From NCBI RefSeq assembly GCF_019464535.1, contig NZ_CP080507.1:1080001-1112000 (forward strand): DNA of 32,000 bases, read 5' to 3'. This document shows positions 1,883-23,101 of this stretch, one piece after another; the first letter of the stretch is position 1; each line of letters starts with the position of its first letter. Source of the stretch: Horticoccus luteus. Lineage in GTDB: Bacteria > Verrucomicrobiota > Verrucomicrobiia > Opitutales > Opitutaceae. Position numbers and translations under genes: made by a program. The notes beneath the pieces were generated by a model. The model saw only the letters and a list, made by a program, of their open reading frames with translations. It had not been told where the DNA came from and searched no databases.

Positions 1883-1889
1883 CGCTGCA

Positions 1890-1919
1890 GGTAGCAGCGA
1901 AAACGGCCGCGCCGCTACC
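1890..1919. terminator. GC-rich hairpin between the convergent GT2 and rhaB genes
   Basis: GGTAGCAGCG (1890-1899) pairs with CGCCGCTACC (1910-1919) with one mismatch and a 10-nt loop. There is no clear U-tract. Confidence 0.3.
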
Positions 1920-1992
1920 GCCGGTGGTGGCGGAAAACGCACGCCCACCGTGATCGATTGAGGCGCACGCCGTGGGCGCGGCCGCGGCGGCG

Positions 1993-3426
1993 CTAACCTC
2001 GCGGGGCGTAAGCTTTTTGCTCCAAGTGGTGGGCGAGAAGGCGACGGAACGTTTTCAGGTCTTTCACGGCGCCGAGCGCGATGAGCTGGCTGGCGAGGTT
2101 GCCGACGGCGCTGCCTTCCAGGCTGAACGAGGCGACGGGGATGCCGGCGGCGTTCGCGGTGGCCTGGCAAAGGAGGCGGTTGCGGGAGCCGCCTCCGACC
2201 ATCAGGATGCGTTGAAACCGGCGGCCAATCATGTGCTCGAATGCCTGGGCAGCGTGGGCGTGGCCGCGACCGATCGAGTCGCAGATCAGGCGGGTGTAGC
2301 CGGCGAGATCTTTGGGCGCGCGGAGTTTTCGTTTCTTCAACTGGGCGTCGATGGCGCGTTTCATCGAGTCGGGCGCGGCGAACGCGGGGTCGGCGAGATC
2401 GAGCAGGCCGGCGGGGGCGGGGAGTTTCTCGGCGGCGGCGATGAGGGCGGCCCATTCGCGGTCGTGGGACGGGCGGCGCGAGAAATCCTTCATCGTCTGC
2501 TCAAGGAGGAAGAGGCCGACGACGTTGGTGAGCGGGCGGTAGCCGCCGCGACCGGTGCGTTCGTTCGCGATGCGCGCGGCGAGGGCGTCGGCGCCGAGGA
2601 GCGGGGCGTCGTTTTCGAAACCGACGAGCGACCACGTGCCGGAGGAGAGAAACAAGTCGCCGCCGTTTTCCGCGGCGGGCATGGCATCGTAGGCGCTGGC
2701 GGTGTCGTGGCCGGGGACGGCGATGACCTGCGTGCCGGCAAGTTCGGGCAGGCTGCGCACGCGGCCGAGCTTGGTGCCGGACGTGATGGGTGCCTTGAAC
2801 CATTCGGCGGGGACGCGAAAGTGGTTGAGGGCGGCGCGCGACCAGTCGCGGCCGTGGACGTCGAGGAGTTGCGTGGTGCTCGCGTTGGAAAGTTCGTTTT
2901 CCATCCGACCGCTGAGGAGGAAATTGAAGTAGTCGGAGAGCAGGAGGCAGCGCGTGGCGAGGTCTTCGATCGCGGGGCAACTGGCGACGGTCTCGGCGAG
3001 TTGGAGGGAGGTGTTGTAGAAAACGTTGGGGATGCCGGTGGCGGCGTAAACGCGTTCGAGGGCGGCGCGGGTGCGCGCGAGGCGTTGGAGGCCGGGCTGG
3101 GTGCGGGCGTCGCGGTAGGCGTGCGGCGGAAAGACGAGGCGGCCGGCGTCGTTGAGGAGCACATGGTCGCAGCCCCACGTGTCGACGCCGACGGAGGCGA
3201 GCTTCGCGCCGCGGGGCAGCGCGGCGACGGCTTGGCGGAGGCCGGTCTGCACCTCGTGCCAGAGTGCGCCGAGTTCCCAATACGCGTGAGGCCCGAGCTC
3301 GCGGTAGGTGTTGGGGAAGCGGTGGACTTCGGCGAGGGTGAGGCGTTGGCGGGACCAGGTGCCGAGGATGACGCGGCCGCTGGTGGCGCCGAGATCGACG
3401 GCGGCGGAGTAGAGGGCGGAAGGCAT
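1993..3426 (-). CDS. rhaB: Rhamnulokinase (FGGY carbohydrate kinase family)
   Basis: MPSALYSAAVDLGATSGRV, HRFPN, VDTWGCDHVLL, AYRDARTQ, LSSGTWSLVGFE and IANERTG run along the length of E. coli RhaB as I recall it. The start ATG at 3426 gives 477 aa. The track ORF extends to 4056 only because no in-frame stop intervenes. Confidence 0.8.
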   Translation of the reverse strand: MPSALYSAAVDLGATSGRVILGTWSRQRLTLAEVHRFPNTYRELGPHAYWELGALWHEVQTGLRQAVAALPRGAKLASVGVDTWGCDHVLLNDAGRLVFPPHAYRDARTQPGLQRLARTRAALERVYAATGIPNVFYNTSLQLAETVASCPAIEDLATRCLLLSDYFNFLLSGRMENELSNASTTQLLDVHGRDWSRAALNHFRVPAEWFKAPITSGTKLGRVRSLPELAGTQVIAVPGHDTASAYDAMPAAENGGDLFLSSGTWSLVGFENDAPLLGADALAARIANERTGRGGYRPLTNVVGLFLLEQTMKDFSRRPSHDREWAALIAAAEKLPAPAGLLDLADPAFAAPDSMKRAIDAQLKKRKLRAPKDLAGYTRLICDSIGRGHAHAAQAFEHMIGRRFQRILMVGGGSRNRLLCQATANAAGIPVASFSLEGSAVGNLASQLIALGAVKDLKTFRRLLAHHLEQKAYAPRG

Positions 3427-3618: not shown

Positions 3619-5976
3619 ATGGCTACTTCCGCTGACCCCAAGCACGTGGAGCCGTATATCGGCGCCGCGACCGTAATGAGGGAGTTCACCGCGCGCGCGG
3701 TGATTACCGGTGCGATCCTCGGGATGATCTTTGGAGCATCGTCCCTTTACCTGGTGTTGAAGGTCGGTTTGACCGTGAGCGCGTCGATCCCCGTCGCGGT
3801 GATTTCGCTGGCGCTGTTTCGCGGCCTGTCGAAGACGGGTCTGCGCGACGCGACGATTCTCGAACACAACATCACGCAGACGGCGGGCTCGGCGGGCGAG
3901 TCGCTCGCCTTCGGCATCGGCGTGACGATGCCGGCGATCCTGATCCTCGGCTTCGATCTGGAACTGACGCGCGTGATGCTGGTGGCGATGCTCGGTGGGT
4001 TGCTGGGCATCCTGATGATGATTCCGCTGCGGCGGGCGTTGATCGTGAAGGAGCACGGGACATTAAAATATCCCGAAGGCACGGCTTGCGCGGCGGTCTT
4101 GAAAGCGGGTGCCAACGCTGACGACAAGGCGCACGCCTCGCCGAGCGCGCAGGCGGAGATTCGCGCGGCGGCGGCGGCGGGGCTGGGCGCGGCGCCGGGG
4201 GCGAAGGCGATTTTCACGGGCTTCGGCGTGGGGTTGATTTACACGACGTTCAACATCGCGCTCAAGGGATGGAAGGATGTGTCGGAAAAAGTGTTTGGCG
4301 CGCCCTTCAAGGCGGGCTCGGTCAGCGTGGAAGTATCGCCGGCGCTGCTCGGCGTGGGCTACATCATCGGGCCGCGGATCGCGTCGATCATGTGTGCGGG
4401 CGGTGTGTTGAGCTACCTCGCGCTGATTCCGATGATCAAATTTTTCGGCGAGTCGATGACGACGCCCCTTGAGCCCGGCACGAAACTTATTTCCGACATG
4501 AGCCCGGGCGACATTCGCAGCGCGTATGTGCTCTACATCGGAGCGGGCGCGGTGGCGGCGGGCGGGATCATCAGTCTCGTGCAGGCGATGCCGACGATCT
4601 GGCACGGCTTGAAGGAAGGTCTGCGCAATCTCAACGGTTCGCGAGGGAGCACGCTGGCGCGCGACGAAACGCCGCGCACGGAGCGCGACCTTTCGCTGAA
4701 GTTTGTCGGCATCGGCGTGGTTTTACTGCTGTTGGCGATCACGTTCGCACCGTCGCTCGAAATGAATTTCCTCGGCGCGCTGCTGATCGTGTTGTTCGGA
4801 TTCTTGTTTGTGACGGTGTCGTCGCGGTTGACGGGCGAGATCGGCTCTTCGTCGAATCCGATTTCCGGCATGACCGTGGCGACGTTGTTGTTCACGTGCC
4901 TCATTTTTCTCCTCGTGGGCTGGACGGGGCGGACGGAATACGTGACGGCGCTTTCGGTGGGCGCGATCGTGTGCATCGCGGCATCGAATGGCGGGACGAC
5001 TTCGCAGGACTTGAAGACGGGCTTTCTCCTCGGGGCGACGCCGAAGCTGCAGCAGTGGGCGATCATGGCGGGCGCGGCGCTTTCGGCGGTGTGTCTCGGG
5101 CCGGTGCTGCTCGTGTTGAACGACGCTTCGACCGTTTACGTGCCGATCCACGAGATCGCGCCGGCGGGGCTGCATACGGACGTGGGAGCGTTGAAGAAGA
5201 CGGAAGGGCTCAAGGGACCGCAGGCGCGGGACGATGCGAACAGTTATCTCGTGTGGCAGAAAACGGACAATGTCGGCGCGCCCGAGGGACGTTATCTGGT
5301 GAATCAAAAGGGCGAGGCGGTGTGGCTCGTCGATCCTGGCATCAACGGGACGCACAATCGCCGGCCTGACGGCTCGCTGGTGCAAAAGTTCGATGCGCCG
5401 AAGGCGACGCTGATGTCGTATATCATCAAGGGGATTCTCGATCGGAAGCTGCCGTGGGCGCTCGTGTTGCTGGGCGTGATGATTGCCGTGACGATGGAGA
5501 TGTCGTTCGTGCCGGCGCTGGCGTTTGCGGTGGGCGTTTACCTGCCGTTGTCGTCGTCGTCGCCGATTTTCTTTGGCGGTTTCGTGCGGTGGCTGGTGGA
5601 TCGGCGGATGCGGAAGAAGGCCGCTTACGCGGCGATGACGCCGGCGCAGTTCACGGAGGAGACCGACAAGAGTCCCGGCGTGCTACTGGCGTCGGGTTAC
5701 ATTGCGGGCGGGGCGATCGCGGGCATCATCATTGCGATCATGCAAGGCGTGCCGTGGTTCGAAGGGATCAACGACGGGATCACCACCTGGTCGACGGCGC
5801 ACAATCCGTTTTTCGACGGGCCGAATTCGGATCTGTTGACGTTGGTGCCGTTCGCGGTGCTCTGCATTTTGCTATATTTGGTCGGCCGCGAAAAACTGCT
5901 GGCGGGGCGTCTGGCGGGTCCGATGTATGCGGGGCGGGCCGATGCCGAAGGCGAGCAGATCCCGCCCGGCGCGTGA
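3619..5976 (+). CDS. OPT-family oligopeptide transporter
   Basis: 785 aa and polytopic. The N-terminus (REFTARAVITGAILGMIFGASSLYLVLKVGLTVSASIPVAVIS) and later motifs (TGEIGSSSNPISGMTVATLL, SQDLKTGFLLGATP) are typical of bacterial OPT proteins, including a large extracytoplasmic loop. Confidence 0.8.
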   Translation: MATSADPKHVEPYIGAATVMREFTARAVITGAILGMIFGASSLYLVLKVGLTVSASIPVAVISLALFRGLSKTGLRDATILEHNITQTAGSAGESLAFGIGVTMPAILILGFDLELTRVMLVAMLGGLLGILMMIPLRRALIVKEHGTLKYPEGTACAAVLKAGANADDKAHASPSAQAEIRAAAAAGLGAAPGAKAIFTGFGVGLIYTTFNIALKGWKDVSEKVFGAPFKAGSVSVEVSPALLGVGYIIGPRIASIMCAGGVLSYLALIPMIKFFGESMTTPLEPGTKLISDMSPGDIRSAYVLYIGAGAVAAGGIISLVQAMPTIWHGLKEGLRNLNGSRGSTLARDETPRTERDLSLKFVGIGVVLLLLAITFAPSLEMNFLGALLIVLFGFLFVTVSSRLTGEIGSSSNPISGMTVATLLFTCLIFLLVGWTGRTEYVTALSVGAIVCIAASNGGTTSQDLKTGFLLGATPKLQQWAIMAGAALSAVCLGPVLLVLNDASTVYVPIHEIAPAGLHTDVGALKKTEGLKGPQARDDANSYLVWQKTDNVGAPEGRYLVNQKGEAVWLVDPGINGTHNRRPDGSLVQKFDAPKATLMSYIIKGILDRKLPWALVLLGVMIAVTMEMSFVPALAFAVGVYLPLSSSSPIFFGGFVRWLVDRRMRKKAAYAAMTPAQFTEETDKSPGVLLASGYIAGGAIAGIIIAIMQGVPWFEGINDGITTWSTAHNPFFDGPNSDLLTLVPFAVLCILLYLVGREKLLAGRLAGPMYAGRADAEGEQIPPGA

Positions 5977-6101
5977 TTGAGCCGGGCGGTGAGGGCGTTC
6001 GAGAACTCGCACGTCGGCGCGGCCTCGACGAGCGCACGGCGCAAGGATGGCGTGCGGTGCGCTCGCGCGAGGCGGCTGCGCTTGGTGGATAATTCCGCAC
6101 G

Positions 6102-6437
6102 TCAAGGCGCGGGCGGAATCGGCGGCGCGCTGTCGTCCATTTCCGGCCGCGGCGGGCGGTCGCCGTGGGGCGGGTGCGCGGGGCGAAATTCGTCCGGCGT
6201 AAGCTGGCCGTCGTGATTTTTGTCGAGCGTGAGCAAAGCGGTGGACGCGCGGGCGATTTCGTCGGCGGAAATTACGCCGTCGTGATTCGCGTCGAGTGCG
6301 ACGAGCAGCGGCGGCGGAGGCGGACGGTGGCCGTGGGCGGAGTCGGGCGGCGACGGCGGTGCGGCGTCGGCCGGTTGGGCGGGAAGCGCGAGCGCCAAAA
6401 GCGGCAGCGCGCAGAGAAGGCGAATAGGATTCTTCAT
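6102..6437 (-). CDS. Secreted small EF-hand pair protein with His/Pro-rich flanks
   Basis: Signal peptide MKNPIRLLCALPLLALALPAQPADA. There are two canonical 12-residue EF loops, DANHDGVISADE and DKNHDGQLTPDE. The flanks are HGHRPPPPP and HPPHGDRPPRPEMDD. An alternative GTG start at 6455 would add MRTSRR. Confidence 0.75.
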   Translation of the reverse strand: MKNPIRLLCALPLLALALPAQPADAAPPSPPDSAHGHRPPPPPLLVALDANHDGVISADEIARASTALLTLDKNHDGQLTPDEFRPAHPPHGDRPPRPEMDDSAPPIPPAP

Positions 6438-6461
6438 ACGCCGTGAGGTTCGCACGCGGAT

Positions 6462-6500
6462 GTTAAGCGTGGATGAACGGCGGTGCGGAAAATTGTTAAG
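6462..6500 (-). promoter_or_regulatory. Conserved element copy C (upstream of the EF-hand gene)
   Basis: The minus strand reads TCGCTTAACAATTTTCCGCACCGCCGTTCATCCACGCTTAACATC. The CTTAAC half-sites are 33 bp apart. The 17 nt GCTTAACAATTTTCCG... are identical to copy B. The element ends 24 nt before the ATG at 6437. Confidence 0.6.
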
Positions 6501-6542
6501 CGAGTGAAAAGCCAGCGCGGGAGGCGCCGCGCAGGCGGATGA

Positions 6543-8060
6543 TCAAGGCGCACGCGCGAGCTGGATCTCGGCGCCGAAGCCGTGAGGCGTGCGGTTGAAG
6601 AAGCGGACGTTGCCGCCGCACGCCGCGATGGAGGAACGCACGATCGCGAGGCCGAGGCCGGAGCCGCCCGTGTCTGCCGAGCGTGCTTCGTCGGGCCGGA
6701 AGAACGGTTCGCCGAGGCGGGCGAGCGCTTCGGGCGGCACGCCAGGTCCGTCGTCCTCAACGATGAGCTTGATGTGTCCATCGTCCGGCGCGGCGGAGAG
6801 AAAGACGTGACTGCCGGGGGCATAGCGCGCGGCATTGCGGAGGAGGTTGGCGACGGCGCGTTCGAGCAGCCGGGCATCCGCGAGCACGCGCAGGCTCGGC
6901 GCCACCTCGACGCGGCAGACGATAGCGGGTGCTTCGCGCATGTGAACGCGTTGCAGCAGCGGAGCGAGTTCCACCGGTGCGAGGCTGGCGGCGCGGGGCC
7001 GGAGCCCGGCCTGGGTGAACGCCATCAATTCGTTCACGAGCTGGCTCATGTGCTGCACCTCGTCGCGCACGTCGCCGAGGGGGGCGGTGGCGGCGGCGCC
7101 AGTGCGTTGCTCAAGAATTTCGACGGCGACCTGCAGGCGGCCGAGAGGTGAGCCGAGCTCGTGGGCGACGTCGCCGAGAAAACGTTTCTGGCCTTGTGCC
7201 TGAGTTTCGAGGCGGGCGGCCATGCGGTTAACGGACTCGCCGAGGTGACCAAGTTCGTCGCGGCGGCGGGTCGGAACGCGCGTGGTGAAATCGCCAGAGG
7301 CGATGCGTTCGGTGGCGGCGCCGAGCTGGCGCAGGGCGCGGCTGATGCCGCGGACGAGCGGGAGCCAAAACAAAATGGAAACCACCAGGACGCCGGCAGC
7401 GGTGAGGAACCACGGCGTGAGGTCGAGGAGGCCGAGGAGCGCGCGGAGCGAAGAGGAATGCACGACGAGACTCACGGGTTCGGGGCGGCCGTTGTGGTCG
7501 ACGGGCGGCATGCGCACGATGAGCCACCAGGCGGCGGGTTCGCCGACGTGAAACAAATGCCGGCCGCGCGCGAGATTCCGGGCGTTGGCGCCGGGACGAT
7601 CGGAGCGGAGGTCGGGCGGCGGAGCGGCGTCGTCGCGAGGAGGCGCATCGTCGTGGAACTCGTCGCGGTCGTGGCGGGGTGGCGGGCGCGAGCCAGGCGG
7701 TGGTGGCGGGAGACCGAGAGGCGGTGGAGGGCGGAGTAGTGCGATGACTTCGCGCGGGAGTTCGGGGGCGTGACCGGCCCGCGTTTCGCCGCTCTCGTTG
7801 GCGACAACCGCATAATCGAGTTGGTCGCTGAGCGGGAGGTGCGCGACGGCAGCGGTGGCGTCGTCGGTCGCGCGAAGTTCGGCGGCGAGGAGGTTGGCGG
7901 CGGCCTGGGCGCGTTCACCGGCGGGTCCGCGCACGAGAGCGTCGAGGCCCGAGGCGTCGGACGTGACGAACAGCACGCAAGCGGCGAGCGCGGCGACGAG
8001 GAGGAGGTTGAGCACGAGCCAGAGCGAAACCTTGAGCGAGAGGGGGAAGCGGACGTGCAT
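6543..8060 (-). CDS. Sensor histidine kinase, CpxA/EnvZ-like (TM - periplasmic domain - TM - HAMP - HisKA - HATPase)
   Basis: HAMP-like segment RALRQLGAATERIASGDFTTRVP...LGESVNRMAARLE. H-box FLGDVAHELGSPLGRL. N-box LLRNAARYA. G-boxes DDGPGVPPE and GGSGLGLAIV. I prefer the ATG at 8060 (MHVRFPLSLKVSLWLVL...) over the TTG at 8090. Confidence 0.85.
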   Translation of the reverse strand: MHVRFPLSLKVSLWLVLNLLLVAALAACVLFVTSDASGLDALVRGPAGERAQAAANLLAAELRATDDATAAVAHLPLSDQLDYAVVANESGETRAGHAPELPREVIALLRPPPPLGLPPPPPGSRPPPRHDRDEFHDDAPPRDDAAPPPDLRSDRPGANARNLARGRHLFHVGEPAAWWLIVRMPPVDHNGRPEPVSLVVHSSSLRALLGLLDLTPWFLTAAGVLVVSILFWLPLVRGISRALRQLGAATERIASGDFTTRVPTRRRDELGHLGESVNRMAARLETQAQGQKRFLGDVAHELGSPLGRLQVAVEILEQRTGAAATAPLGDVRDEVQHMSQLVNELMAFTQAGLRPRAASLAPVELAPLLQRVHMREAPAIVCRVEVAPSLRVLADARLLERAVANLLRNAARYAPGSHVFLSAAPDDGHIKLIVEDDGPGVPPEALARLGEPFFRPDEARSADTGGSGLGLAIVRSSIAACGGNVRFFNRTPHGFGAEIQLARAP

Positions 8061-8123
8061 GCGGAAGCGGGAGTGAGGCGAGCGTAGCAAGCGGCGGAGG
8101 AAAATCCCGCGGATTTACGCGGC

Positions 8124-8161
8124 CTTAACAATAAACCAGCCGACCCTCATGCAGGCTTAAC
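8124..8161 (+). promoter_or_regulatory. Conserved element copy A (upstream of the YHYH gene, in the divergent region with the kinase gene)
   Basis: The plus strand reads GGCCTTAACAATAAACCAGCCGACCCTCATGCAGGCTTAACTTGG. The CTTAAC half-sites lie at 8124-8129 and 8156-8161, 32 bp apart. The element ends 39 nt before the ATG at 8201. Confidence 0.6.
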
Positions 8162-8200
8162 TTGGGCGGAGTGAAATGGAGGCAACTTCTCCTCCCCATC

Positions 8201-10780
8201 ATGAAACTTCGTTTTTCGCTTGGTGTTTTTTGTGCCGGGTTCGCGGTCGTGCGGTCGGCGGATGCCGCCGTCAGCGATCCGCTGGTGACGAGTTGGTTGA
8301 CGGCGCCGACGGGCTGGTATGCGCGTCTGTATCAAAGTGACGCGGCGAAGGCGGCGGGCACGGCGGTGACGACGTGGAGCCGCGGTCAGACGAATCAAAC
8401 GGCGCCTGTTTACGCGGGTGTGATGCAGGTTTCGTATTCGACGGGCTGGGTCTATCTGCGCACGAGTGGGCTAGGTTACCACGTGATGGGGCCGTGGTAT
8501 CTCGACGCGGGGCACCTGCAGAATTTTCCGAACTTTCCTGGCAACACGGCGACGATTTATCGGTTTCCGCGGGTGCCGGCGGCGGCGGTCACCCACACGC
8601 TCACCAACGGCGGGGCGATCGGTTACTTCGTCGATGGCGTGGCGATGTTCGACAACCGCGACACGTTTTCCTACACGCATGCCTCGAGTCAGGACGCCAC
8701 GCCCGTGAATGGCCTGCACGGTGACGGCGTGTGGAATCGCGATGCGTTCGTGAACGAAGCGGTGACGTTCGATCCGGCGTATGCGCATCAGGCGGGATCG
8801 CAATATCACTACCACGCCAACACGCCGGCGCTGCGGCACGAGTTGGGCGATCATGTGGATTTCAATGCGAACACGCGGACGTATCAGGAAAGCAGTGCGG
8901 CCGTGACCGCGCACTCGCCGATCGTGGGTTGGGCGGCGGATGGCTATCCAGTCTATGGGCCGTATGGCTATGCGTCGGCGATGGACGCGGGCAGCGGCGT
9001 GCGGCGAATGATCTCAGGCTATGTGAAACGCGACGGCACGCGCGGCACGATCAACCTCGCGAGCACCGGGCGCACGACGTTGCCGGCGTGGGCGGCGCGC
9101 GCGCAAAGTCGCAGTGCATCGCTCGCGCCGACGGTGCAGGGACCGGCGGTGAACGGCACTTACACGCTCGGACATTACCTCGAAGACTACGAATATCTGG
9201 GCGATGTGGGTGGCACGCTGGGAACGAATTTCGATCTCGACGAATACAACGGCCGGGAGTGCGTGACGCCCGAATTTCCGCAGGGCACCTACGCGTATTT
9301 CTTGAGCATCGAGGACGACGGCACGCCGAAGTTTCCTTACATTCTGGGGCGCTGGTTCCGCGGCACACCGGCGGGAGGGCCGGTGACAGCGTTGAGCGAG
9401 ACGGTGACGGAATACGTGCGCGGCGCGCCGGCCGCGGCGATCGGAGTGATGGCCGGCGCGGCGGTGGGAGGCGGGGTGACGTTGAGTTGGAATTCGGCGG
9501 AAGGCGCGACGTATAAAGTCGAATCGTCGGCGGATCAGGCGGCGTGGACGACGCTGGCGGCGGCGGTCACGAGCGGGGGCGCGACGACGAGTTACGGGGC
9601 GCCGGTGGCGGGATATTATCGGGTGACGTTGGTGGCGATCGCCACGTATGACACGAACGGCCCGGTCGGCACGCCGGTGGGCACGGCGGGGATCGTGGCG
9701 TATGCGCCAACGGTAGCGCCGACGATCACCACGGCGCCGGTAAGCGCGACAGTGGCGGCAGGCGGAGAGGCGATGCTGGCCGTGGAAGCGAACGGGTCAG
9801 GGCCGCTCGCCTACCAATGGCGAAAGGACGGCGTGGATGTCGCGGCTGCGACAGAGGCGACGCTGACGATTCCGTTCGCGCAGACGAAAGACAGCGGAAG
9901 TTACGTGGTCGCGGTGAGCAACGCCGGTGGGGCGGCGACGAGTGCGGCGGCGGCGTTGACGGTGACGCCGACACCGACCGCAGCGACGGCGCGATTGATG
10001 AATCTCTCGACGCGCGCGCAGACGGGCGGCGCGACGGGCATGCCGATTGTGGGTTTCGTGCTGAGTGGGCCGGGAACGCGGACGATGCTCGTGCGCGCGG
10101 CGGGTCCGGCGCTGGCCAACTCGGGCGTGAGCGCACCGCTGGCGGATCCGAGTTTGTCGCTGGTCAGGGAGGGAACGCTGCTGGCGGCGAACGAGGATTG
10201 GAGCGCGAGCGACGCCGCGACGTTTACGGCGGCGGGCGCCTTCCTGTTTACGGCGGGCAGCAAGGATGCGGCGCTGGTGAGCGCGCTCGCGGGCGGGGTT
10301 TACTCGGCACCGGTGGGCACAGGCGGCGGCATGGGCGTGGCACTGGTGGAAGTTTACGATGCGGGCGGCAATGCGGTCGGACCGGCACTCACCAACCTCT
10401 CGAGTCGAACATTTGTCGGCGTGGGCGAACAGGTGGCGATCGCGGGTTTTGTGATCGGCGGCAGCGGGCCGATGCGACTGCTGTTGCGCGCGGCCGGTCC
10501 CGCGCTGGCGGCGTATGGCGTCGGCGATGCGCTCGTCGATCCGCGCGTGACGCTTTACGCGGGCAGCGCGGTGGTGGCGACGAATGACGACTGGAGCGAC
10601 AACGTGGATGCGGCGACGGTTGCGACGACGGCGACGGAGACGGGCGCGTTTGCGTTGGCGAGCGGAAGCAAGGATGCGGCGATGATCGTGAGTCTGCCGC
10701 CCGGCGTTTATTCGATGGTCGTGGCGGGCGCAGGCGCGAATACCGGCACGGCGCTGGCGGAAATTTACGTGGTGCCGTGA
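8201..10780 (+). CDS. Large secreted YHYH-domain protein with Fn3-like and Ig-like (I-set type) domains and two tandem C-terminal modules
   Basis: Signal peptide MKLRFSLGVFCAGFAVVRSADA. The YHYH motif (GSQYHYHAN, nt 8804-8815), HSPIVGWAADGYPVYGPYG and LDEYNGRE...FPYILGRWFRG fit the YHYH domain family. An Ig-like segment lies around 9719-9970 (LAYQWRKDG...DSGSYVVAVSNAGG). The ATG at 8201 is chosen for its signal peptide over the GTG at 8162. Confidence 0.75.
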   Translation: MKLRFSLGVFCAGFAVVRSADAAVSDPLVTSWLTAPTGWYARLYQSDAAKAAGTAVTTWSRGQTNQTAPVYAGVMQVSYSTGWVYLRTSGLGYHVMGPWYLDAGHLQNFPNFPGNTATIYRFPRVPAAAVTHTLTNGGAIGYFVDGVAMFDNRDTFSYTHASSQDATPVNGLHGDGVWNRDAFVNEAVTFDPAYAHQAGSQYHYHANTPALRHELGDHVDFNANTRTYQESSAAVTAHSPIVGWAADGYPVYGPYGYASAMDAGSGVRRMISGYVKRDGTRGTINLASTGRTTLPAWAARAQSRSASLAPTVQGPAVNGTYTLGHYLEDYEYLGDVGGTLGTNFDLDEYNGRECVTPEFPQGTYAYFLSIEDDGTPKFPYILGRWFRGTPAGGPVTALSETVTEYVRGAPAAAIGVMAGAAVGGGVTLSWNSAEGATYKVESSADQAAWTTLAAAVTSGGATTSYGAPVAGYYRVTLVAIATYDTNGPVGTPVGTAGIVAYAPTVAPTITTAPVSATVAAGGEAMLAVEANGSGPLAYQWRKDGVDVAAATEATLTIPFAQTKDSGSYVVAVSNAGGAATSAAAALTVTPTPTAATARLMNLSTRAQTGGATGMPIVGFVLSGPGTRTMLVRAAGPALANSGVSAPLADPSLSLVREGTLLAANEDWSASDAATFTAAGAFLFTAGSKDAALVSALAGGVYSAPVGTGGGMGVALVEVYDAGGNAVGPALTNLSSRTFVGVGEQVAIAGFVIGGSGPMRLLLRAAGPALAAYGVGDALVDPRVTLYAGSAVVATNDDWSDNVDAATVATTATETGAFALASGSKDAAMIVSLPPGVYSMVVAGAGANTGTALAEIYVVP
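9989..10384 (+). repeat. C-terminal module copy 1 of the YHYH protein (about 130 aa)
   Basis: Shares with copy 2: NLS(T/S)R, GFV(L/I)xGxG, L(V/L)RAAGPALA, L(A/V)DP, NxDWS, GSKDAA, GVYS and AL(V/A)E(V/I)Y. Confidence 0.7.
10385..10777 (+). repeat. C-terminal module copy 2 of the YHYH protein (about 130 aa)
   Basis: See copy 1. The two translated segments align by eye along their full length. Confidence 0.7.
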
Positions 10781-10802
10781 TGCGCGGCGGCGCGTCAACT
10801 GC

Positions 10803-11540
10803 TTACTCGGGGTCGTCGGGCGCGCGCATCATGTAGCCGGCAGAGCGGAGCGTGCGGATGAAGCGCGGGTTCTTGGCATCGTCGCCGAGCTTTTTGCGAA
10901 GCGAAGAAATGTGCACGTCGATGGAGCGGTCGAAAACGTCGTAGTTGCGGTCGCGGCATTCGTCGAGGAGGGCTTCGCGGGTTTTGACGCGGCCCCGGGC
11001 GCGCGCGAGGCTCGCGAGCAGGTCGAACTCCACGGGCGTGAGCACCAAGGGCGCGGCGTCGAGCACGGCGCGACGGGCGTCGAGGTTGACGCGCAGAGGG
11101 CCGACGGTGAATTCTGCGCGCGGTGCGTCGGCGGCGGCGATGGTGCGTTGGCTGCGACGGAGGACGGCGCGGAGGCGGGCGAGGAGTTCGCGCGTGGAAA
11201 ATGTTTTAGGCACGTAGTCGTCGGCGCCGACTTCGAGTCCGACGATGCGGTCCATCTCATCGCCGCGCGCGGTGAGCATCAGCACGGGAACGTCGACGCG
11301 CGCGCGGATGCGTTTCAGGACTTCAAAGCCGTCGAGGCCGGGGAGCATGACGTCGAGGATGACGGCGTGCCAGGACTCGGTGGTCGACGTGGCGCGGTCG
11401 ACGCCGTCGGGACCGGTGTGCGCGGCGGAGACATCGAAGCCGAGTGGCGCGAGATAGGCGGTGACGAGCCGGCAGAACTTGCGGTCGTCGTCGATCATGA
11501 GCACGCGGGTGCGGCCGGGATCGGGGGCGGCGTCGGTCAT
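10803..11540 (-). CDS. OmpR/PhoB-family response regulator, CpxR-like
   Basis: Receiver domain RVLMIDDD...ILDVMLPGLDGFEVLKRIR...MLTARGDEMDRIVGLEVGADDYVPKTFSTRELLARLRAVLRR. Winged-helix C-terminus LTPVEFDLL...DVHISSLRKKLG...IRTLRSAGYM. ATG at 11540. Confidence 0.9.
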   Translation of the reverse strand: MTDAAPDPGRTRVLMIDDDRKFCRLVTAYLAPLGFDVSAAHTGPDGVDRATSTTESWHAVILDVMLPGLDGFEVLKRIRARVDVPVLMLTARGDEMDRIVGLEVGADDYVPKTFSTRELLARLRAVLRRSQRTIAAADAPRAEFTVGPLRVNLDARRAVLDAAPLVLTPVEFDLLASLARARGRVKTREALLDECRDRNYDVFDRSIDVHISSLRKKLGDDAKNPRFIRTLRSAGYMMRAPDDPE

Positions 11541-11585
11541 GGGGGCGTTGTGCGGGAGGGCGCGGAGCGGCGCAACTTTTGTTCG

Positions 11586-11634
11586 CTTAACAGGGGCTTA
11601 ACAATTTTCCGAAGGCTCCTCATACGGGCTTAAC
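11586..11634 (+). promoter_or_regulatory. Conserved element copy B (upstream of the MbnP-MbnH gene, in the divergent region with the regulator gene), with an extra upstream half-site
   Basis: The plus strand reads CGCTTAACAGGGGCTTAACAATTTTCCGAAGGCTCCTCATACGGGCTTAACTGCG. CTTAAC lies at 11586, 11597 and 11629, giving spacings of 11 and 32 bp. The element ends 21 nt before the ATG at 11656. Confidence 0.6.
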
Positions 11635-11655
11635 TGCGAACGGCGAGAGTGAGGC

Positions 11656-13458
11656 ATGCGCTGGTTCGCGTTACTTGTGTTGCCGGTGGGGTCGTCGCAG
11701 GCGGCGGAGCTGACGATGCGGGTGGCGTTGCGGTGGGGCGGCGAATCGCTGGCCGTGCCGTCGACGGAGGTGCGCACGGACGCGGGGATGAAGTTGCGGG
11801 TGACGCGGCTGGCGGCGTTGCTGTCGGGCGCGGTGTTGACGAAGAGCGACGGGACGGTGGTGCGGCTCGACGGGCAATTTGGTTTTATCGACGCGGAGTC
11901 GGGGCGGCTGGCATGGACGTTGCGCGGCGTGCCGGCGGGCGACTATGCGGGACTCGGTTTTCAAGTCGGCGTGCCGACGGCGGTGAACCATGCCGATCCC
12001 GGACAGTGGCCGGCGGGGCACGCGCTGAATCCGCTGGTGGACCGGCTGCACTGGAGCTGGCAGGGCGGCTATGTGTTTTTCGCGCTGGAAGGACGCTGGC
12101 GTGACGGGGCGACGCCGGACACGGCGACGGAGCGCGGGTTTTCGTATCACGTGGCGACGGAGGCGCGTTTGATGAGGGTGAATTTCGTGGCGGCGTTTCG
12201 CGTGGAGGGTGCGACGACGGTCACATTGGCGCTGAATGTGGCGCGGGTTTTGGCGGTGCCGCAATGGGCGGCGGCAGGCAACGAGAGCACGCATTCGGCG
12301 GTCGGCGATGAGCTCGCGCCGAAGCTGGCGAACGCGTTCAGCCGCGGGTGGTTTTGGCTGGGCGCGGAGGAGGCGTCGCGTGCGGCGAACTCGGCGCGCG
12401 TCGATGAAGCAGCAGAAGCGCCGACGGCGGTGGCGGGCGATGCGAAGAGAGGAAAAGCCGCGGGCGCGAAGCCGCGGGCATTTGTGGTGCCGGCGGGGTT
12501 TCCGCAGCCGGATTTGCCGCAGGACAATCCGTTGACGGAAGAAGGGATCGCGTTGGGAAAAGTGTTGTTCAACGACCGGCGGCTGTCGGCGGGCGGGCAA
12601 CAGTCGTGCGCGAGCTGCCATGCGCCGGAGCGTGGGTTCAGCGACGACGTGGCGCGGAGCCGCGGCGCGAACGGCGGAGTGGGCGAGCGGAATGCGATGC
12701 CGTTGCTGAATCTGGCGTGGAGTCCGGCGTTTGCGTGGGACGGCGCGCAGCCGCGGATCCGCGATCAGGCGCGGGCGGCGATGTTGAATCCGCGGGAAAT
12801 GGCGGCGGACGAGCACGTGGTGCTGGCGACGCTCAATGGTGATGCGGTGTTGCGGGCGCGTTTCGCGGTGGCTTTCGGGCCGGGTGAAATCACGGCGGAC
12901 CGGCTCGGCCGGGCGTTGGAGCAATACTTGCTGACGCTGGTGGCGGCGGACTCAAAATTCGACCGGGCGATGCGGGGAGAGGAAACGTTGACCGCCGAGG
13001 AGCAGCGGGGATTTGAGTTGTTCGCGACGGAATACGATCCGGCGCGCGGGCGCAGGGGCGGCGATTGCTTTCACTGCCACGGCGGCGCGTTGTTCACCGA
13101 TTACGCGTATCGGAGCAACGGATTGGAGCGCGTCTCGGGCGATGCGGGGCGCGCGCGGGTGACGGGGCGCGAGGAAGATCGCGGGAAGTTCAAGACGCCG
13201 TCGCTGCGCAACGTGGCGTTGACGGCGCCGTATATGCACGACGGGCGGCTGAGGACGCTTGAGGACGTCGTCGCGCACTACGATCACGGCGTGCAGCGGG
13301 GGGCGTCGCTCGATCCCAATCTGGCGAAGCATCCGCTGGCGGGGATGCAACTGCCGTCAGCGGATCAGGCGGCGCTGGTGGCGTTTTTGCGGACGTTGAC
13401 CGAGAGCGCTTCGGTGGGCGCGGGCGGAGAACGGCGCGCGAGAGCGGCGGCGCGTTGA
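11656..13458 (+). CDS. Fusion protein: N-terminal MbnP-like domain + C-terminal MbnH/MauG-type di-heme cytochrome c peroxidase
   Basis: Short signal peptide. In the N-domain, VPAGDYAGLGFQVGVPTAVNHADP and NPLVDRLHWSWQGGYVFFALEG match the MbnP-family pattern as I recall it. An Ala/Lys-rich linker follows. In the C-domain the two heme motifs are CASCH (nt 12607-12621) and CFHCH (nt 13066-13080), with the CCP signatures GKVLFND, RNAMPLLN, WDG, FKTPSLRNV and APYMHDG. Confidence 0.7.
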   Translation: MRWFALLVLPVGSSQAAELTMRVALRWGGESLAVPSTEVRTDAGMKLRVTRLAALLSGAVLTKSDGTVVRLDGQFGFIDAESGRLAWTLRGVPAGDYAGLGFQVGVPTAVNHADPGQWPAGHALNPLVDRLHWSWQGGYVFFALEGRWRDGATPDTATERGFSYHVATEARLMRVNFVAAFRVEGATTVTLALNVARVLAVPQWAAAGNESTHSAVGDELAPKLANAFSRGWFWLGAEEASRAANSARVDEAAEAPTAVAGDAKRGKAAGAKPRAFVVPAGFPQPDLPQDNPLTEEGIALGKVLFNDRRLSAGGQQSCASCHAPERGFSDDVARSRGANGGVGERNAMPLLNLAWSPAFAWDGAQPRIRDQARAAMLNPREMAADEHVVLATLNGDAVLRARFAVAFGPGEITADRLGRALEQYLLTLVAADSKFDRAMRGEETLTAEEQRGFELFATEYDPARGRRGGDCFHCHGGALFTDYAYRSNGLERVSGDAGRARVTGREEDRGKFKTPSLRNVALTAPYMHDGRLRTLEDVVAHYDHGVQRGASLDPNLAKHPLAGMQLPSADQAALVAFLRTLTESASVGAGGERRARAAAR

Positions 13459-13472
13459 AACGGGAGAGGCAG

Positions 13473-13499
13473 CACGGCGCCGGGAAGAGCGGCGCCGTG
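13473..13499. terminator. Perfect 9-bp GC hairpin between the convergent MbnP-MbnH and FAH genes
   Basis: CACGGCGCC (13473-13481) pairs with GGCGCCGTG (13491-13499) across a 9-nt loop. There is no U-tract, so this is a tentative bidirectional terminator. Confidence 0.35.
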
Positions 13500-13516
13500 G
13501 GCGCGAACCGCGCGGA

Positions 13517-14317
13517 TCAGGCTTCGTTGACGACCGGATTGGTGAGCGTGCCGATCTTCCCGATCTCGATGCTGACGGAGTCGCCGGCTTTGAGCCAGAG
13601 CGGGGGCTTGGCCGCCATGCCGACGCCTTGGGGCGTGCCGGTGAGAATGACGGTGCCGGGGACGAGCGTGGTGCTGCCGCTCAGGTAGGCGATGAGCGCG
13701 GGGACGTCGAAAATCATGTCACTGGTGGTCCAATCCTGCACGCGCTGGCCGTTGAGAATCGTGGCGATCTTGAGCGTATTCGGATTGGTGATTTCGTCGG
13801 TCGTGACGAGGCACGGTCCAAGCGGGGCGAACGTGTCGAAGAACTTGCCGCGGCACCATTGGCCGCCGCCGAGCCGGATCTGGTGATCGCGGGCGGAGAC
13901 GTCGTTGGCGCAGGTGTAGCCGAGGACGTAGTCGAGGGCGTTTTCGCGGGAGACGTTTTTGCAAGGTTTGCCGATGACGACGGCGAGTTCGCATTCGTAG
14001 TCGACCTCGTGGCTGGCGAGGCGGGTGGGGATTTCGATCGGGTCGCCGGGGTTCTGCGTGGCGTTGATGCCTTTGACGAAGAGGATGGGGCGCTCGGGGA
14101 TTTTCGCGCCGGTTTCGGCGGCGTGCTGCCGGTAGTTGAGCCCGATGCAGAGGATCTGCGTGGGGGCGATCGGCGCGAGGAGCTTGCCGGGGCGCACAGG
14201 GCGATCGGTGACTTGGTAGGAGCCGAAGATGTCGCCGGAAATTTCGCGGGCGGAGCCATCGGGCTGGAGAGCGGCGTAGGCGGGGCCTTGGGGCGAGAGG
14301 TGACGAATGATTTTCAT
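13517..14317 (-). CDS. Fumarylacetoacetate hydrolase (FAH) family protein
   Basis: ILCIGLNYRQHAAE...PILFVKG...VDYECELAVVIGK...GYTCANDVSARD...GKFFDTF.P.GP and the C-terminal GDSVSIEIGKIGTLTN are typical FAH-fold motifs. It lies 30 nt downstream of the AraC gene on the same strand. Confidence 0.8.
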   Translation of the reverse strand: MKIIRHLSPQGPAYAALQPDGSAREISGDIFGSYQVTDRPVRPGKLLAPIAPTQILCIGLNYRQHAAETGAKIPERPILFVKGINATQNPGDPIEIPTRLASHEVDYECELAVVIGKPCKNVSRENALDYVLGYTCANDVSARDHQIRLGGGQWCRGKFFDTFAPLGPCLVTTDEITNPNTLKIATILNGQRVQDWTTSDMIFDVPALIAYLSGSTTLVPGTVILTGTPQGVGMAAKPPLWLKAGDSVSIEIGKIGTLTNPVVNEA

Positions 14318-14347
14318 GAGAGGGAAACTCAGCTAGCCGTGGGCGCG

Positions 14348-15193
14348 TCAGCGGGGCAAGGCCGCGTCGGGTCTTTTTTCGAGCCACGCGCGGGGCGGGT
14401 GGCCGAAGCGGGCGCGGAAGAGCCGATAGAAATGGGAGAGATCGCCGTAGCCGCTGGAAAAGGCGGCGCCGACGACGGAGTGACGTTGCGCGCGCAGCAG
14501 TTGCGCGGCGTGGGTGAGGCGGCGTTCGGTGAGTTCGGCGAGGAAGCTGCGGTCGGTAACCTCGCGAAACAGTTTGCTGAACTGGCGGCGGGAGAGGTCG
14601 GCTTGGGCACAGGCGCGTTCGAGGCTCCACGGTTCGTAGAAGGTGGCGGCGAGTTCGCGGGCGACGGTCTCGACGCGGCGGCGGGCGGCGTCGGAGGAAA
14701 GGCCGGCGGGCCGGCGGGCGAGGGCGACGAGCGCGTTTTCCGCGGCGGCGCGGATGACGATTTCACGGCCGAGGCGCACGCCGGCCTGCTCGACGACTGC
14801 GGCGCGCCAATATGTTTCGAATTGTTGGGCCCAGGTCCGGCCAGGGCGCAACGCGGCAGGACGTGCGGGAGTGAGTTTTTCCCAGAGCGAATCGAGGCCG
14901 GGGACACTGCGGACAAAATCGCGCGAGAAACACAAGAGCAGCAGCGTCGCGGGCTCGCTGTCGGTGATCTTGTGGCCCACGCCGGCTGCCACGCAGACGA
15001 CGGTGCCGGCGGGAGCGTGGACGGGCGTGGCGTCGCCTTTGATCGAACAGGCGATGCGGCCGTGGAGGACGTAGATGATCTTGTGAAACGGGTCGATGCG
15101 CTCCGCCATGTGGAAGCGCGGCCCGTGCACGCTTTCGACGAACGCGACGCCGTGAGGAGGGAGTTCGACGGGGATGGGGCGGGAGACGCTCAT
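14348..15193 (-). CDS. AraC-family transcriptional regulator (cupin sensor + double HTH)
   Basis: Cupin-like N-terminus HKIIYVLHGR...AGTVVCVAAGVGHK. C-terminal AraC HTH LSRRQFSKLFREVTDRSF...AAFSSGYGDLSHFYRLFRARFG. I prefer the ATG at 15193 over the TTG at 15208. Confidence 0.85.
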   Translation of the reverse strand: MSVSRPIPVELPPHGVAFVESVHGPRFHMAERIDPFHKIIYVLHGRIACSIKGDATPVHAPAGTVVCVAAGVGHKITDSEPATLLLLCFSRDFVRSVPGLDSLWEKLTPARPAALRPGRTWAQQFETYWRAAVVEQAGVRLGREIVIRAAAENALVALARRPAGLSSDAARRRVETVARELAATFYEPWSLERACAQADLSRRQFSKLFREVTDRSFLAELTERRLTHAAQLLRAQRHSVVGAAFSSGYGDLSHFYRLFRARFGHPPRAWLEKRPDAALPR

Positions 15194-15442
15194 GCAGGTG
15201 AAACTCAACTAAAATGCCCAATCTGCGAAGGTGGCCAAGCCCGATGTGCCAAGACGCACGAGGATTTGAATGGTAGGATGCTTCGCCTCATCGCCCAACC
15301 CCCCTTTTTCGCATGGCCGATTCTTTTCCTTCACCTGTCACTGGCACGGCGCCCGGTTTCGCGCGCGCCGTCGTGGCGTGGAGGTGGACCAGCCGCGCGA
15401 GGCGGATGAGCGCAGCGGTCGGAACATGGCGAGGTTGAACGA

Positions 15443-19428: not shown

Positions 19429-22326
<2,898 letters not shown>

Positions 22327-22432
22327 GCCTCCACGCTAGAAGCCGGCGCTTCCCGCGCAATCGCGTTTCGATCCGGCGGTGTTTAAGGTGTTGTTTTTGG
22401 GAGTGAAGCCGCTGTGTTGACCGACCGTTCGC

Positions 22433-23101
22433 ATGAGTGCCGAGACGTTTTCCACCCGCGCCCAGCGAGCTGCCTACATTGATCGGCGGCTGGCCGAGCT
22501 TTATCCAGCGACGCCGGTGCCGTTGACGCATCGCGACGCGTTTACGTTGCTCATCGCCGTGCTGCTTTCAGCGCAGTGCACGGATAAACGCGTGAACGAA
22601 ATCACGCCACGGCTGTTCGCGCGGGCCGACACGCCGGCGGCGATGGCCAAGGTGCCGGTCGAGGAGATCCAGGCCATCATCCGCCCGTGCGGGCTTTCGC
22701 CGCAGAAGGCGAAGGCGATCAGCGGGCTTTCGCGCCAGTTGCTGGAGCGACATGGAGGGGAAGTGCCGCGGACGTTTGCGGACTTGGAGGCGTTGCCCGG
22801 CGTGGGGCACAAAACGGCATCGGTCGTGATGGCGCAGGCGTTTGGCGTGCCGGCGTTTCCGGTCGACACGCACATCCACCGGCTGGCGCAACGCTGGACG
22901 TTGACGAACGGGCGCAACGTCGAGCAGACGGAGGCGGATTTGAAAAAATTGTTTCCGCGTGAGCATTGGAACGCGTTGCACTTGCGGATTATTTTTTACG
23001 GGCGCGAGCATTGCACAGCGTATGCGTGCGATGGCACGCGTTGTGAGATTTGCGCGACGTTGTTTCCGCGACGGACGCGGGCGGTGAAGACCCGCAAGTG
23101 A
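22433..23101 (+). CDS. nth: Endonuclease III (DNA glycosylase/AP lyase)
   Basis: HhH-GPD motifs LLSAQCTD and LPGVGHKTASVVM, plus VDTHIHR. A C-terminal four-Cys cluster CTAYACDGTRCEIC would hold the 4Fe-4S centre. Confidence 0.9.
   Translation: MSAETFSTRAQRAAYIDRRLAELYPATPVPLTHRDAFTLLIAVLLSAQCTDKRVNEITPRLFARADTPAAMAKVPVEEIQAIIRPCGLSPQKAKAISGLSRQLLERHGGEVPRTFADLEALPGVGHKTASVVMAQAFGVPAFPVDTHIHRLAQRWTLTNGRNVEQTEADLKKLFPREHWNALHLRIIFYGREHCTAYACDGTRCEICATLFPRRTRAVKTRK

Follow-up and report, generated by a model that had tools for sequence, protein, structure and literature searches.

A widespread single-chain fusion of an MbnP-like domain and a MauG/MbnH-type di-heme domain, encoded beside a conserved YHYH-domain gene in Horticoccus luteus

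The closest described system is the MbnP/MbnH pair of Methylosinus trichosporium OB3b (structures 7L6G and 6E1C; NCBIfam models TIGR04052 and TIGR04039), in which a MauG-type enzyme is paired with a β-rich periplasmic partner that bears a WxW motif. In OB3b MbnP the copper is held by a His, a Met, Kyn174, and a solvent ligand (PMC11951088). This kynurenine arises from the leading Trp of the WxW motif in an MbnH-dependent conversion that is needed for copper binding (PMC11951088). MbnP is the only characterised member of the family and binds Cu(I), and the kynurenine sites known so far, those of MbnP, MopE*, and CorA, all hold copper (PMC11951088). Pairs of MbnP and MbnH are also known in copper-related operons, and they have been described far outside methanobactin operons (PMC3621798). 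Here we analyse 32,000 nucleotides of the Horticoccus luteus genome (contig NZ_CP080507.1, positions 1,080,001 to 1,112,000, forward strand; the window), where one gene, the fusion gene, encodes relatives of both partners as a single polypeptide, whereas OB3b makes two. The features of this gene and of its neighbours are collected in Table 1.

Family models recognise both halves of the protein, as an original prediction made from the sequence had anticipated. The MbnP profile PF20243 scores 97.2 bits (cut-off 27 bits) and covers the N-terminal domain almost end to end, aligning residues 18-204 with model positions 3-181 of 189. In the C-terminal half, PF03150 (CCP_MauG) scores 166.7 bits (cut-off 25.6 bits) over residues 296-443, a Cytochrom_C match in Pfam follows at residues 451-581, and the best NCBIfam model is TIGR04039. 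The coordinates that the prediction gave for the open reading frame (ORF) and for its two heme motifs are exact, and the two N-terminal sequences that it quoted, GDYAGLGFQVGVPTAVNHADP and LHWSWQGGYVFFALEG, are both found in the protein. In the window sequence, there is no in-frame start 5' of 11656 for this ORF. The linker that had been proposed between the two domains is likewise recovered: AlphaFold2 assigns residues 250-268 of the Ala-rich segment a pLDDT below 50, and they are predicted to be disordered. The model of the whole protein has a pLDDT of 83 and a pTM of 0.84; the latter, despite the disordered linker, suggests that the two domains share a defined interface. Attachment of c-type heme requires export, and a signal peptide is predicted at the N-terminus. 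Judged from its sequence, the fusion would be the 'Rosetta-stone' form of the MbnP/MbnH pair, located in the periplasm.

The fusion is a genuine and widespread single ORF. The protein is identical to one deposited for H. luteus (Opitutaceae, Verrucomicrobiota), and both Pfam domains lie in one chain in all 120 of the best database homologues, which derive from isolates, metagenome-assembled genomes (MAGs), and metagenomes, share 57-68% identity, and are 548-655 residues long, with a few of about 850. Every one of the 120 contains two CxxCH motifs and the WxW motif, and the CxxCH motifs are spaced by 153 residues in all but one. We also surveyed GTDB with a profile of the N-terminal domain, using one genome per species; 139 loci were confirmed and 80 were kept. 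A single ORF carries both domains in 74 of these 80 loci, a fraction that describes the fused subfamily and not all MbnP-like proteins, since the peptide patterns used in the survey came from that subfamily and are biased toward it. Three of the other six are cut by contig ends, and separate, adjacent MbnP and MbnH ORFs occur in only three loci (L028, L057, and L064). The loci belong to the Opitutaceae, Pedosphaeraceae/Limisphaerales, Chthoniobacterales, Armatimonadota (Chthonomonadaceae and Fimbriimonadia), Planctomycetota/Phycisphaerae, and one Acidobacteriota MAG, and the fused form is present in more than 100 species genomes.

An HMMER search free of the pattern bias, against 1.84 billion cluster representatives, returned 2022 relatives of the N-terminal domain at E ≤ 1e-3. 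Fused proteins make up at least 33 of the best 150 representatives (two hemes in 20, truncated in 13); the others are fragments or standalone proteins of about 245-290 residues with 0-2 Cys, and nearly all of them keep the WxW motif. To judge from the split MbnP and MbnH ORFs and the standalone relatives, both fusion and fission have taken place, a pattern expected of obligate partners. The split loci are also what an artefact, in which misassembly or a frameshift had joined two genes, could appeal to, together with locus L007 (3x coverage), where the MbnP-like gene stands alone, pieces of an MbnH-like ORF follow it directly, and a YHYH gene is nearby. Such an artefact is ruled out by the 120 fused homologues, which are independent of each other, by the 74 species loci, and by the fixed heme spacing; the same single ORF stands in a complete genome, with its linker in frame, and we give this explanation almost no weight.

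The C-terminal domain is most similar to MbnH. TIGR04039 (MbnH) scores 220.2 bits over residues 288-585, ahead of the MauG model TIGR03791, whose 172 bits lie under its equivalog cut-off of 444 bits. The MbnH structure 6E1C is the top PDB match both by sequence (E 1.8e-43) and by fold (Foldseek E 9e-20; TM-score 0.74, normalised by target length). In MauG-type enzymes the second heme is ligated by His and Tyr, and in canonical bacterial cytochrome c peroxidases (CcPs) it is ligated by His and Met (PMC11892367). In pairwise alignments, Y542 of the fusion lies opposite the Met of 'NTM' in the Shewanella BccP 3O5C and opposite the Tyr of 'DIYSEGG' in MbnH 6E1C; neither Y542, W361, nor either CxxCH motif varies among 111 close homologues or among 71 fusions that span several phyla. 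Because the invariant Y542 occupies the position of the canonical Met ligand, we assign the domain to the MauG type, nearest to MbnH, with Tyr ligation predicted. The likeness to MauG, which acts on the precursor of methylamine dehydrogenase (pre-MADH) to form tryptophan tryptophylquinone (TTQ), includes the His/Tyr second heme, the Trp between the hemes, and the fold (Foldseek E ~1e-17), and MauG too oxidises Trp of its partner at long range. The present locus differs in having no mau genes, and its candidate substrate domain is unrelated to the MADH β subunit. To our knowledge, MauG is never fused to its substrate.

The relationship of the N-terminal domain to MbnP is more distant and is best seen at the WxW motif. 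Searching the PDB with this domain as a single sequence gave no match; only family profiles hit 7L6G, with weak E values of 0.0067 and 0.069, around the WxW motif. In the profile alignment, N111-H112 corresponds to 'NH' of 7L6G, W133-S-W135 to 'WNW', E145 to a Glu, and H165 to the His of 'WMVHVG'. W133, which lies in the peptide LHWSWQGGYVFFALEGR, aligns with the Trp that becomes Kyn174 in OB3b MbnP. Conservation is strict at these positions: R51, W133, W135, E145, H165, T212, and H213 are identical in all 71 members of a set of fusions drawn from Verrucomicrobiota, Armatimonadota, Planctomycetota, and Acidobacteriota, and H132 is conserved in 96%. The WxW motif is present in 65 of 65 diverse MbnP-like proteins, and H213 in about 90% of such proteins. 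The claim that this is not the four-Cys type of MbnP relative also stands. There is no Cys among residues 1-317, before C318 of the first heme motif; 70 of the 120 fused homologues likewise have none, and most fused and standalone relatives have 0-2, often within the signal peptide. By profile and alignment, we classify the N-terminal domain as a divergent, Cys-free MbnP.

If W133 were oxidised, what kind of metal site could this domain form? The invariance of W133 is compatible with self-maturation (Trp to kynurenine) and with copper binding, both of which homology suggests, but is not proof of either. The Met of 'MVH' in 7L6G, a candidate for the Met that binds copper in OB3b MbnP, corresponds to Ser163 in the fusion, and M173 is conserved in only 75%; because of this, the canonical Cu(I) site of His, Met, and Kyn does not appear to be conserved here. 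The fusion differs from OB3b MbnP further in having the additional invariant H213, and H132. The site, if it forms, would more likely resemble the His/His/Kyn type of MopE* and CorA than the His/Met/Kyn type of OB3b: the putative set of H165, H213, and H132 is His-rich and Met-poor. MopE/CorA genes also lie next to a gene for a MauG-like di-heme enzyme. In contrast to the fusion, MopE and CorA have another fold with no detectable sequence similarity, are encoded by separate genes, and are restricted to methanotrophs.

The fusion gene is closely linked to a gene for a secreted YHYH-domain protein. Neighbours were counted in the 48 species loci whose flanks reach 3 kb or more in both directions. 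A large YHYH ORF on the same strand is present in 43 of the 48, across several phyla, and within 1.5 kb in 39; five loci have no large YHYH ORF within the flanks. The response regulator is found in 35 and the histidine kinase in 27 of the 48, and other Opitutaceae genomes show the same gene arrangement. In more distant lineages the YHYH gene runs directly up to the fusion gene or into it; stop and start overlap in L004 and L092, and at most 70 bp separate the two genes in many loci outside the Opitutaceae. The reverse look-up gives a similar picture: the fusion adjoins the YHYH gene in four of five close YHYH homologues, and one has no fusion nearby.

Identity in the YHYH domain is 58-76%, compared with 57-68% for the fusion. 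Its invariant residues include H119, H126, Y127, H128, H161, D77, D114, D170, W22, and W220 (numbering of the fragment 8432-9430). Proteins with this domain (PF14240) include phage tail and baseplate components, and the protein in the window keeps their conserved His cluster and Asp (PMC7824862). The domain has been called 'enigmatic', and a zinc site has been predicted from its His triad and Asp (PMC7824862). Our AlphaFold2 model of the domain (pLDDT 87, pTM 0.88) matches only viral YHYH proteins, from cyanophage and giant viruses; the PDB gave no match by sequence, profile, or fold, NCBIfam gave none for the YHYH protein and the small neighbours, and we found no solved structure or tested function for any YHYH protein.

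Several further features of the YHYH genes were observed. Residues ~610-872 of the protein contain two internal repeats of about 125 residues (NLSxR...GPAL...DP.L.L...N(D/E)DW), with no Pfam match, and its Ig I-set domain (residues 520-596) resembles the Ig domains of phage tail and decoration proteins. A second, small and divergent YHYH-like ORF (~300 residues) lies directly 3' of the fusion in 9 of the 48 loci and is absent from the window; it is found at 9797-10693 in L003/L015, and also in L025, L026, L031, L032, L041, L060, L074, and L083. In the divergent locus L004, the YHYH and fusion genes are preceded by an EF-hand protein gene and by a gene at 1807-3006 for a di-heme oxidoreductase of the DHOR family (PF06537), a second heme enzyme in the same operon.

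Three further genes of the window complete the module: an OmpR/CpxR-type response regulator, a sensor histidine kinase, and a small EF-hand protein, whose gene (6102-6437, minus strand) looks unannotated. Homologues of the EF-hand protein occur in 18 related loci. In L092 the kinase and regulator genes, on the minus strand, are followed on the plus strand by the EF-hand, YHYH, and fusion genes, the last three forming one operon. The top NCBIfam matches of the kinase are BaeS/CpxA/RstB-like and all fall under their cut-offs; the heavy-metal subfamily model TIGR01386 scores 149 bits, also under its cut-off. The periplasmic segment of the kinase (residues ~120-170) is Pro-rich with clusters of His and Asp, PPPRHDRDEFHDDAPPRDD, like the Pro/His-rich tails of the EF-hand protein. 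These segments may represent a shared ligand or interaction motif.

The fusion, YHYH, and EF-hand genes share an operator. The hexamer CTTAAC occurs seven times in the window, where 3.1 are expected, and all seven copies lie in the three promoter regions. Alignment of the three operators gives the composite motif TT(A/T)AC-N5-CTTAACAAT-N~17-CTCAT/CACAC-N5-(C/G)TTAAC. In orthologous loci the operator of the fusion gene is conserved at about -71/-60/-27, and in loci of the Opitutaceae and of Pedosphaera/Limisphaerales the element stands 5' of genes for the fusion, the YHYH protein, and the EF-hand protein. Searching 2.06 Mb of related loci on both strands yielded 65 matches to the composite motif, 55 of them directly 5' of a fusion or YHYH gene; most of the others lie 5' of EF-hand or giant YHYH genes. 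Hexamers one helical turn apart are typical of OmpR-family sites, and the adjacent regulator most likely binds the TTAAC-repeat operator. We found no Rfam RNA element in 5900-13700, and a scan for the sigma-70 consensus gave no match at the three promoters. On the evidence of synteny and the shared operator, the two-component system is dedicated to this module. The original prediction had likewise proposed dedicated two-component control, and that part of it is borne out; the conserved YHYH and EF-hand neighbours it had overlooked.

Our favoured reading, to which we assign a probability of about 0.5, is that the fusion is a self-contained MbnP/MbnH system in which W133 would be converted to kynurenine to create a metal site, probably for copper, and which would take part in envelope metal handling with the YHYH protein under a dedicated two-component system. 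The heme domain would contain a His-ligated heme that reacts with peroxide, a second heme ligated by His and Tyr, and a Trp relay between the two. Using H2O2, or O2 and electrons, it would oxidise W133 of the tethered domain to kynurenine, either in cis or between protomers. In the modified domain, Kyn133 and H165, probably joined by H213 and/or H132, would then make up a site for a single metal ion, most probably copper. The fusion would be co-transcribed or co-regulated with the YHYH protein, with its invariant cluster of four His and Asp, and with the EF-hand protein, the kinase and the OmpR-type regulator acting through the shared TTAAC-repeat operator. Once matured, the MbnP-like domain may acquire metal in the envelope or hand it over to the YHYH protein. 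The identities of the domains, the conserved residues, the reality of the fusion, the gene order, and the common operator are observed; kynurenine formation, the identity of the metal, its ligand set, binding of the operator by the regulator, and the functional link to YHYH are the steps in this scheme that we infer.

Several observations weigh against this reading. The four Cys of canonical MbnP are missing from the N-terminal domain, and TIGR04052 ('MbnP_like_WxW', the four-Cys motif protein) scores 39.1 bits against a cut-off of 140 and matches residues 92-153 only. On the enzyme side, the 220.2 bits of TIGR04039 compare with an equivalog cut-off of 362.85. The Met position discussed above is Ser in the fusion, and M173 is conserved in only 75%. 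The window contains no copper-specific gene (CopC/D, Sco, PCuAC, or a CusRS-type equivalog), and an EF-hand partner suggests Ca2+ and not copper. The linkage to YHYH is so strict that the YHYH protein, instead of the MbnP-like domain, could be the real substrate, and the literature we searched yielded no experiments on any fused member.

That last alternative can be put more fully. The YHYH protein would be the true substrate of the di-heme domain, or an additional one, and would receive a protein-derived cofactor or a cross-link, perhaps at one of its invariant Trp, Tyr, or His residues; the role left to the MbnP-like domain would be that of a docking module, a hole-hopping relay through W133/W135, or a metal donor. 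MauG-family enzymes do mature other proteins, such as MADH with its TTQ (PMC11951088). YHYH is the most conserved neighbour and is often translationally coupled to the fusion, its domain is better conserved than the fusion itself (with H119, H126, Y127, H128, H161, W22, and W220 invariant), and in nine loci the second small YHYH-like gene comes right after the fusion. We nonetheless consider it possible rather than probable that YHYH is the substrate: in the MbnP-like domain both the WxW Trp and the His that may serve as ligand are invariant, which is simplest if that domain is itself modified and binds metal, as the characterised MbnP does, and both the five loci with no large YHYH ORF in their flanks and the YHYH homologue with no fusion nearby break the linkage. 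A bolder version, which we hold to be rather unlikely, joins YHYH, fusion, and EF-hand protein into a previously unrecognised three-part system for maturation and metal loading, in which the di-heme domain, through the MbnP-like domain as relay or metal donor, would build a protein-derived cofactor or metal centre in the YHYH domain with its novel structure. If this were true, the system would represent a new class of secreted enzymes, either metalloenzymes or quinoprotein-like, widespread in Verrucomicrobiota, Planctomycetota, and Armatimonadota, whose YHYH domain would have been borrowed by structural proteins of cyanophages and giant viruses.

The metal, too, may be another. It is doubtful, in our judgement, that the module handles a metal other than copper, with a different ion in the MbnP-like domain, or that its kinase and regulator respond to Ca2+ or to general envelope stress, even with the EF-hand gene under the same operator as the fusion, a kinase and regulator nearest to BaeS/CpxA/RstB and OmpR/CpxR and not to the CusS/CopS equivalogs, the Met position unconserved among the fusions, no copper genes nearby in the window, and a zinc site predicted for YHYH (PMC7824862). 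The heavy-metal sensor-kinase subfamily TIGR01386 is among the matches of the kinase, at the 149 bits under cut-off given above, and MauG-type enzymes need Ca2+, a general requirement that could explain the EF-hand protein with the metal of the site unchanged. Moreover, the characterised MbnP binds Cu(I), and all three kynurenine sites known so far, of MbnP, MopE*, and CorA, are copper sites (PMC11951088). Finally, the fusion could be an ordinary CcP that detoxifies peroxide and carries an extra N-terminal domain, for example for binding an electron donor or for localisation. Many members are indeed annotated 'cytochrome c peroxidase' by JGI and NCBI, canonical CcPs (1IQC, 3O5C, and YhjA 9QDT) score nearly as well as MbnH, and YhjA is itself a CcP with extra N-terminal domains. 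The invariant Tyr542 in place of the canonical Met ligand makes this very improbable, as do the ranking of the models, with MbnH first and MauG-type next, and an N-terminal domain that is a bona fide member of the MbnP family with the modified-Trp motif retained.

By Pfam, then, the fusion belongs to both domain families, and by the strict NCBIfam definitions it belongs to neither equivalog family, a difference from both proteins of the OB3b pair. The genomic context differs as well: the fusion is found with YHYH, EF-hand, and two-component genes, whereas MbnP/MbnH are found with methanobactin genes, TonB-dependent transporters, CopCD, Sco, and PCuAC. The fused architecture is already catalogued in databases, where homologues are named 'cytochrome c peroxidase' (many members, at JGI and NCBI) or 'MbnP family protein'. 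Neither the fused form nor its link to YHYH, the EF-hand protein, or the TTAAC operator is described in the literature we searched, a search that lay outside the primary MbnP/MbnH papers. The original prediction had thus overstated the novelty of the fusion, given that it occurs in more than 100 species genomes and has been named by NCBI. The function beyond methanobactin biology that it had proposed is not new in itself, since MbnP/MbnH pairs elsewhere are known (PMC3621798).

The main value of the locus lies in a natural fusion of enzyme and partner for structural work and in a first way into the function of YHYH. As one chain whose domain interface is predicted to be fixed (pTM 0.84), the protein is attractive for structural studies, for single-turnover kynurenine chemistry, and for the docking of MbnH with MbnP. 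A Cys-free, Met-less, and His-rich subfamily would extend kynurenine-type metal sites beyond the copper biology of methanotrophs, and may use other ligands or another metal. The linkage to YHYH provides the first testable context for a domain of bacteria, algae, and phage tails, and the inducing signal could be sought with a reporter built on the conserved TTAAC operator and its dedicated kinase and regulator.

Table 1 Features of the fusion gene and its neighbours, in window coordinates.
Feature	Position	Strand	Basis or remark
Fusion gene	11656-13458	+	600 aa: signal peptide, MbnP-like domain, linker, MauG/MbnH-type di-heme domain
Predicted Sec signal peptide MRWFALLVLPVGSSQA/AE	11656-11703	+	Sequence reading; homologue consensus MRxxxxLLxxxxxxxAAELTL
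MbnP-like Cys-free domain, residues 18 to ~240	11707-12375	+	PF20243
WxW motif, W133-S-W135	12052-12060	+	W133 equivalent to the kynurenine-forming Trp of MbnP, by alignment
H165, candidate metal ligand	12148-12150	+	Invariant; aligns with the His of 'WMVHVG' in 7L6G; putative ligand role
H213 (T-H-S), second candidate metal ligand, subfamily-specific	12292-12294	+	Invariant; putative role
Ala-rich flexible linker, residues ~241-280	12376-12495	+	Low pLDDT; not conserved in the alignment consensus
Di-heme MauG/MbnH-type domain, residues 288-585	12517-13410	+	TIGR04039, 6E1C
Heme motif 1, CASCH, C318-H322	12607-12621	+	Invariant
W361, inter-heme Trp (A-W-D-G)	12736-12738	+	Aligns with FWDG of N. 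europaea CcP; invariant
Heme motif 2, CFHCH, C471-H475	13066-13080	+	Invariant
Y542, predicted Tyr axial ligand of the second heme	13279-13281	+	Alignment to 3O5C and 6E1C; invariant
Operator 5' of the fusion gene	11586-11634	+	CTTAAC x3 at 11586, 11597, 11629; spacings 11, 32 bp
OmpR/CpxR-type response regulator, divergent from the fusion gene	10803-11540	-	Pfam Response_reg, Trans_reg_C
Secreted YHYH-domain protein, 860 aa	8201-10780	+	PF14240 133 bits; Ig I-set domain; two C-terminal repeats; signal-peptide-like sequence after ATG 8201
Operator 5' of the YHYH gene	8113-8161	+	ATTTAC, CTTAAC (8124), CTTAAC (8156); spacings 11, 32 bp
Sensor histidine kinase (HAMP, HisKA, HATPase)	6543-8090	-	Pfam
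Terminator-like hairpin between the EF-hand and kinase genes	6513-6532	-	Sequence
Operator 5' of the EF-hand gene	6462-6500	-	Same element
Small secreted Pro/His-rich protein with two EF-hand loops, DANHDGVISADE and DKNHDGQLTPDE	6102-6437	-	ORF and sequence

Pfam scans of all long ORFs of the 32-kb window detected no mbnB/C, copC/D, Sco, or PCuAC, in agreement with the earlier statement that methanobactin, copCD, sco, and PCuAC genes are not nearby. The Pfam families of mbnABC and its transporter are also absent from the called genes of L001-L007 and L088-L092, as they are from the long ORFs of the window; hidden Markov models could miss a tiny mbnA-like peptide, whose obligate partners are absent from the window. 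The other genes of the window are housekeeping genes or unrelated to the module. They encode an MFS transporter fragment, a glycosyltransferase, an FGGY kinase, an OPT transporter, an FAA hydrolase, an AraC-type regulator, MTHFR, a GcvT-like protein, a formyltransferase, GcvP, an HhH-GPD protein, GAPDH, PGK, TIM, a polyprenyl synthase, MurJ, and OYE.

The module is flanked at 13517-15208 (minus strand) and 19429-23101 by the FAA-hydrolase, AraC/cupin regulator, GcvP, and HhH-GPD genes. Other Opitutaceae genomes have related flanking genes: L002 has those for FAA hydrolase, GcvP, and HhH-GPD, L003 has the one for FAA hydrolase, and each of L001-L003 encodes a cupin-domain protein. We take this to be probably synteny of the ordinary, local kind, outside the module. 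The window (1-32000) has a very strong compositional asymmetry between its strands: throughout, G exceeds C on the plus strand, with a GC skew of +0.17 overall and up to about 0.27 per kb, and the sign of the skew is the same in genes of either strand. Among related loci, the skew is of similar size in two, +0.20 in L003 and -0.18 in L056, and it ranges from -0.02 to +0.11 in the other 13 that were sampled.

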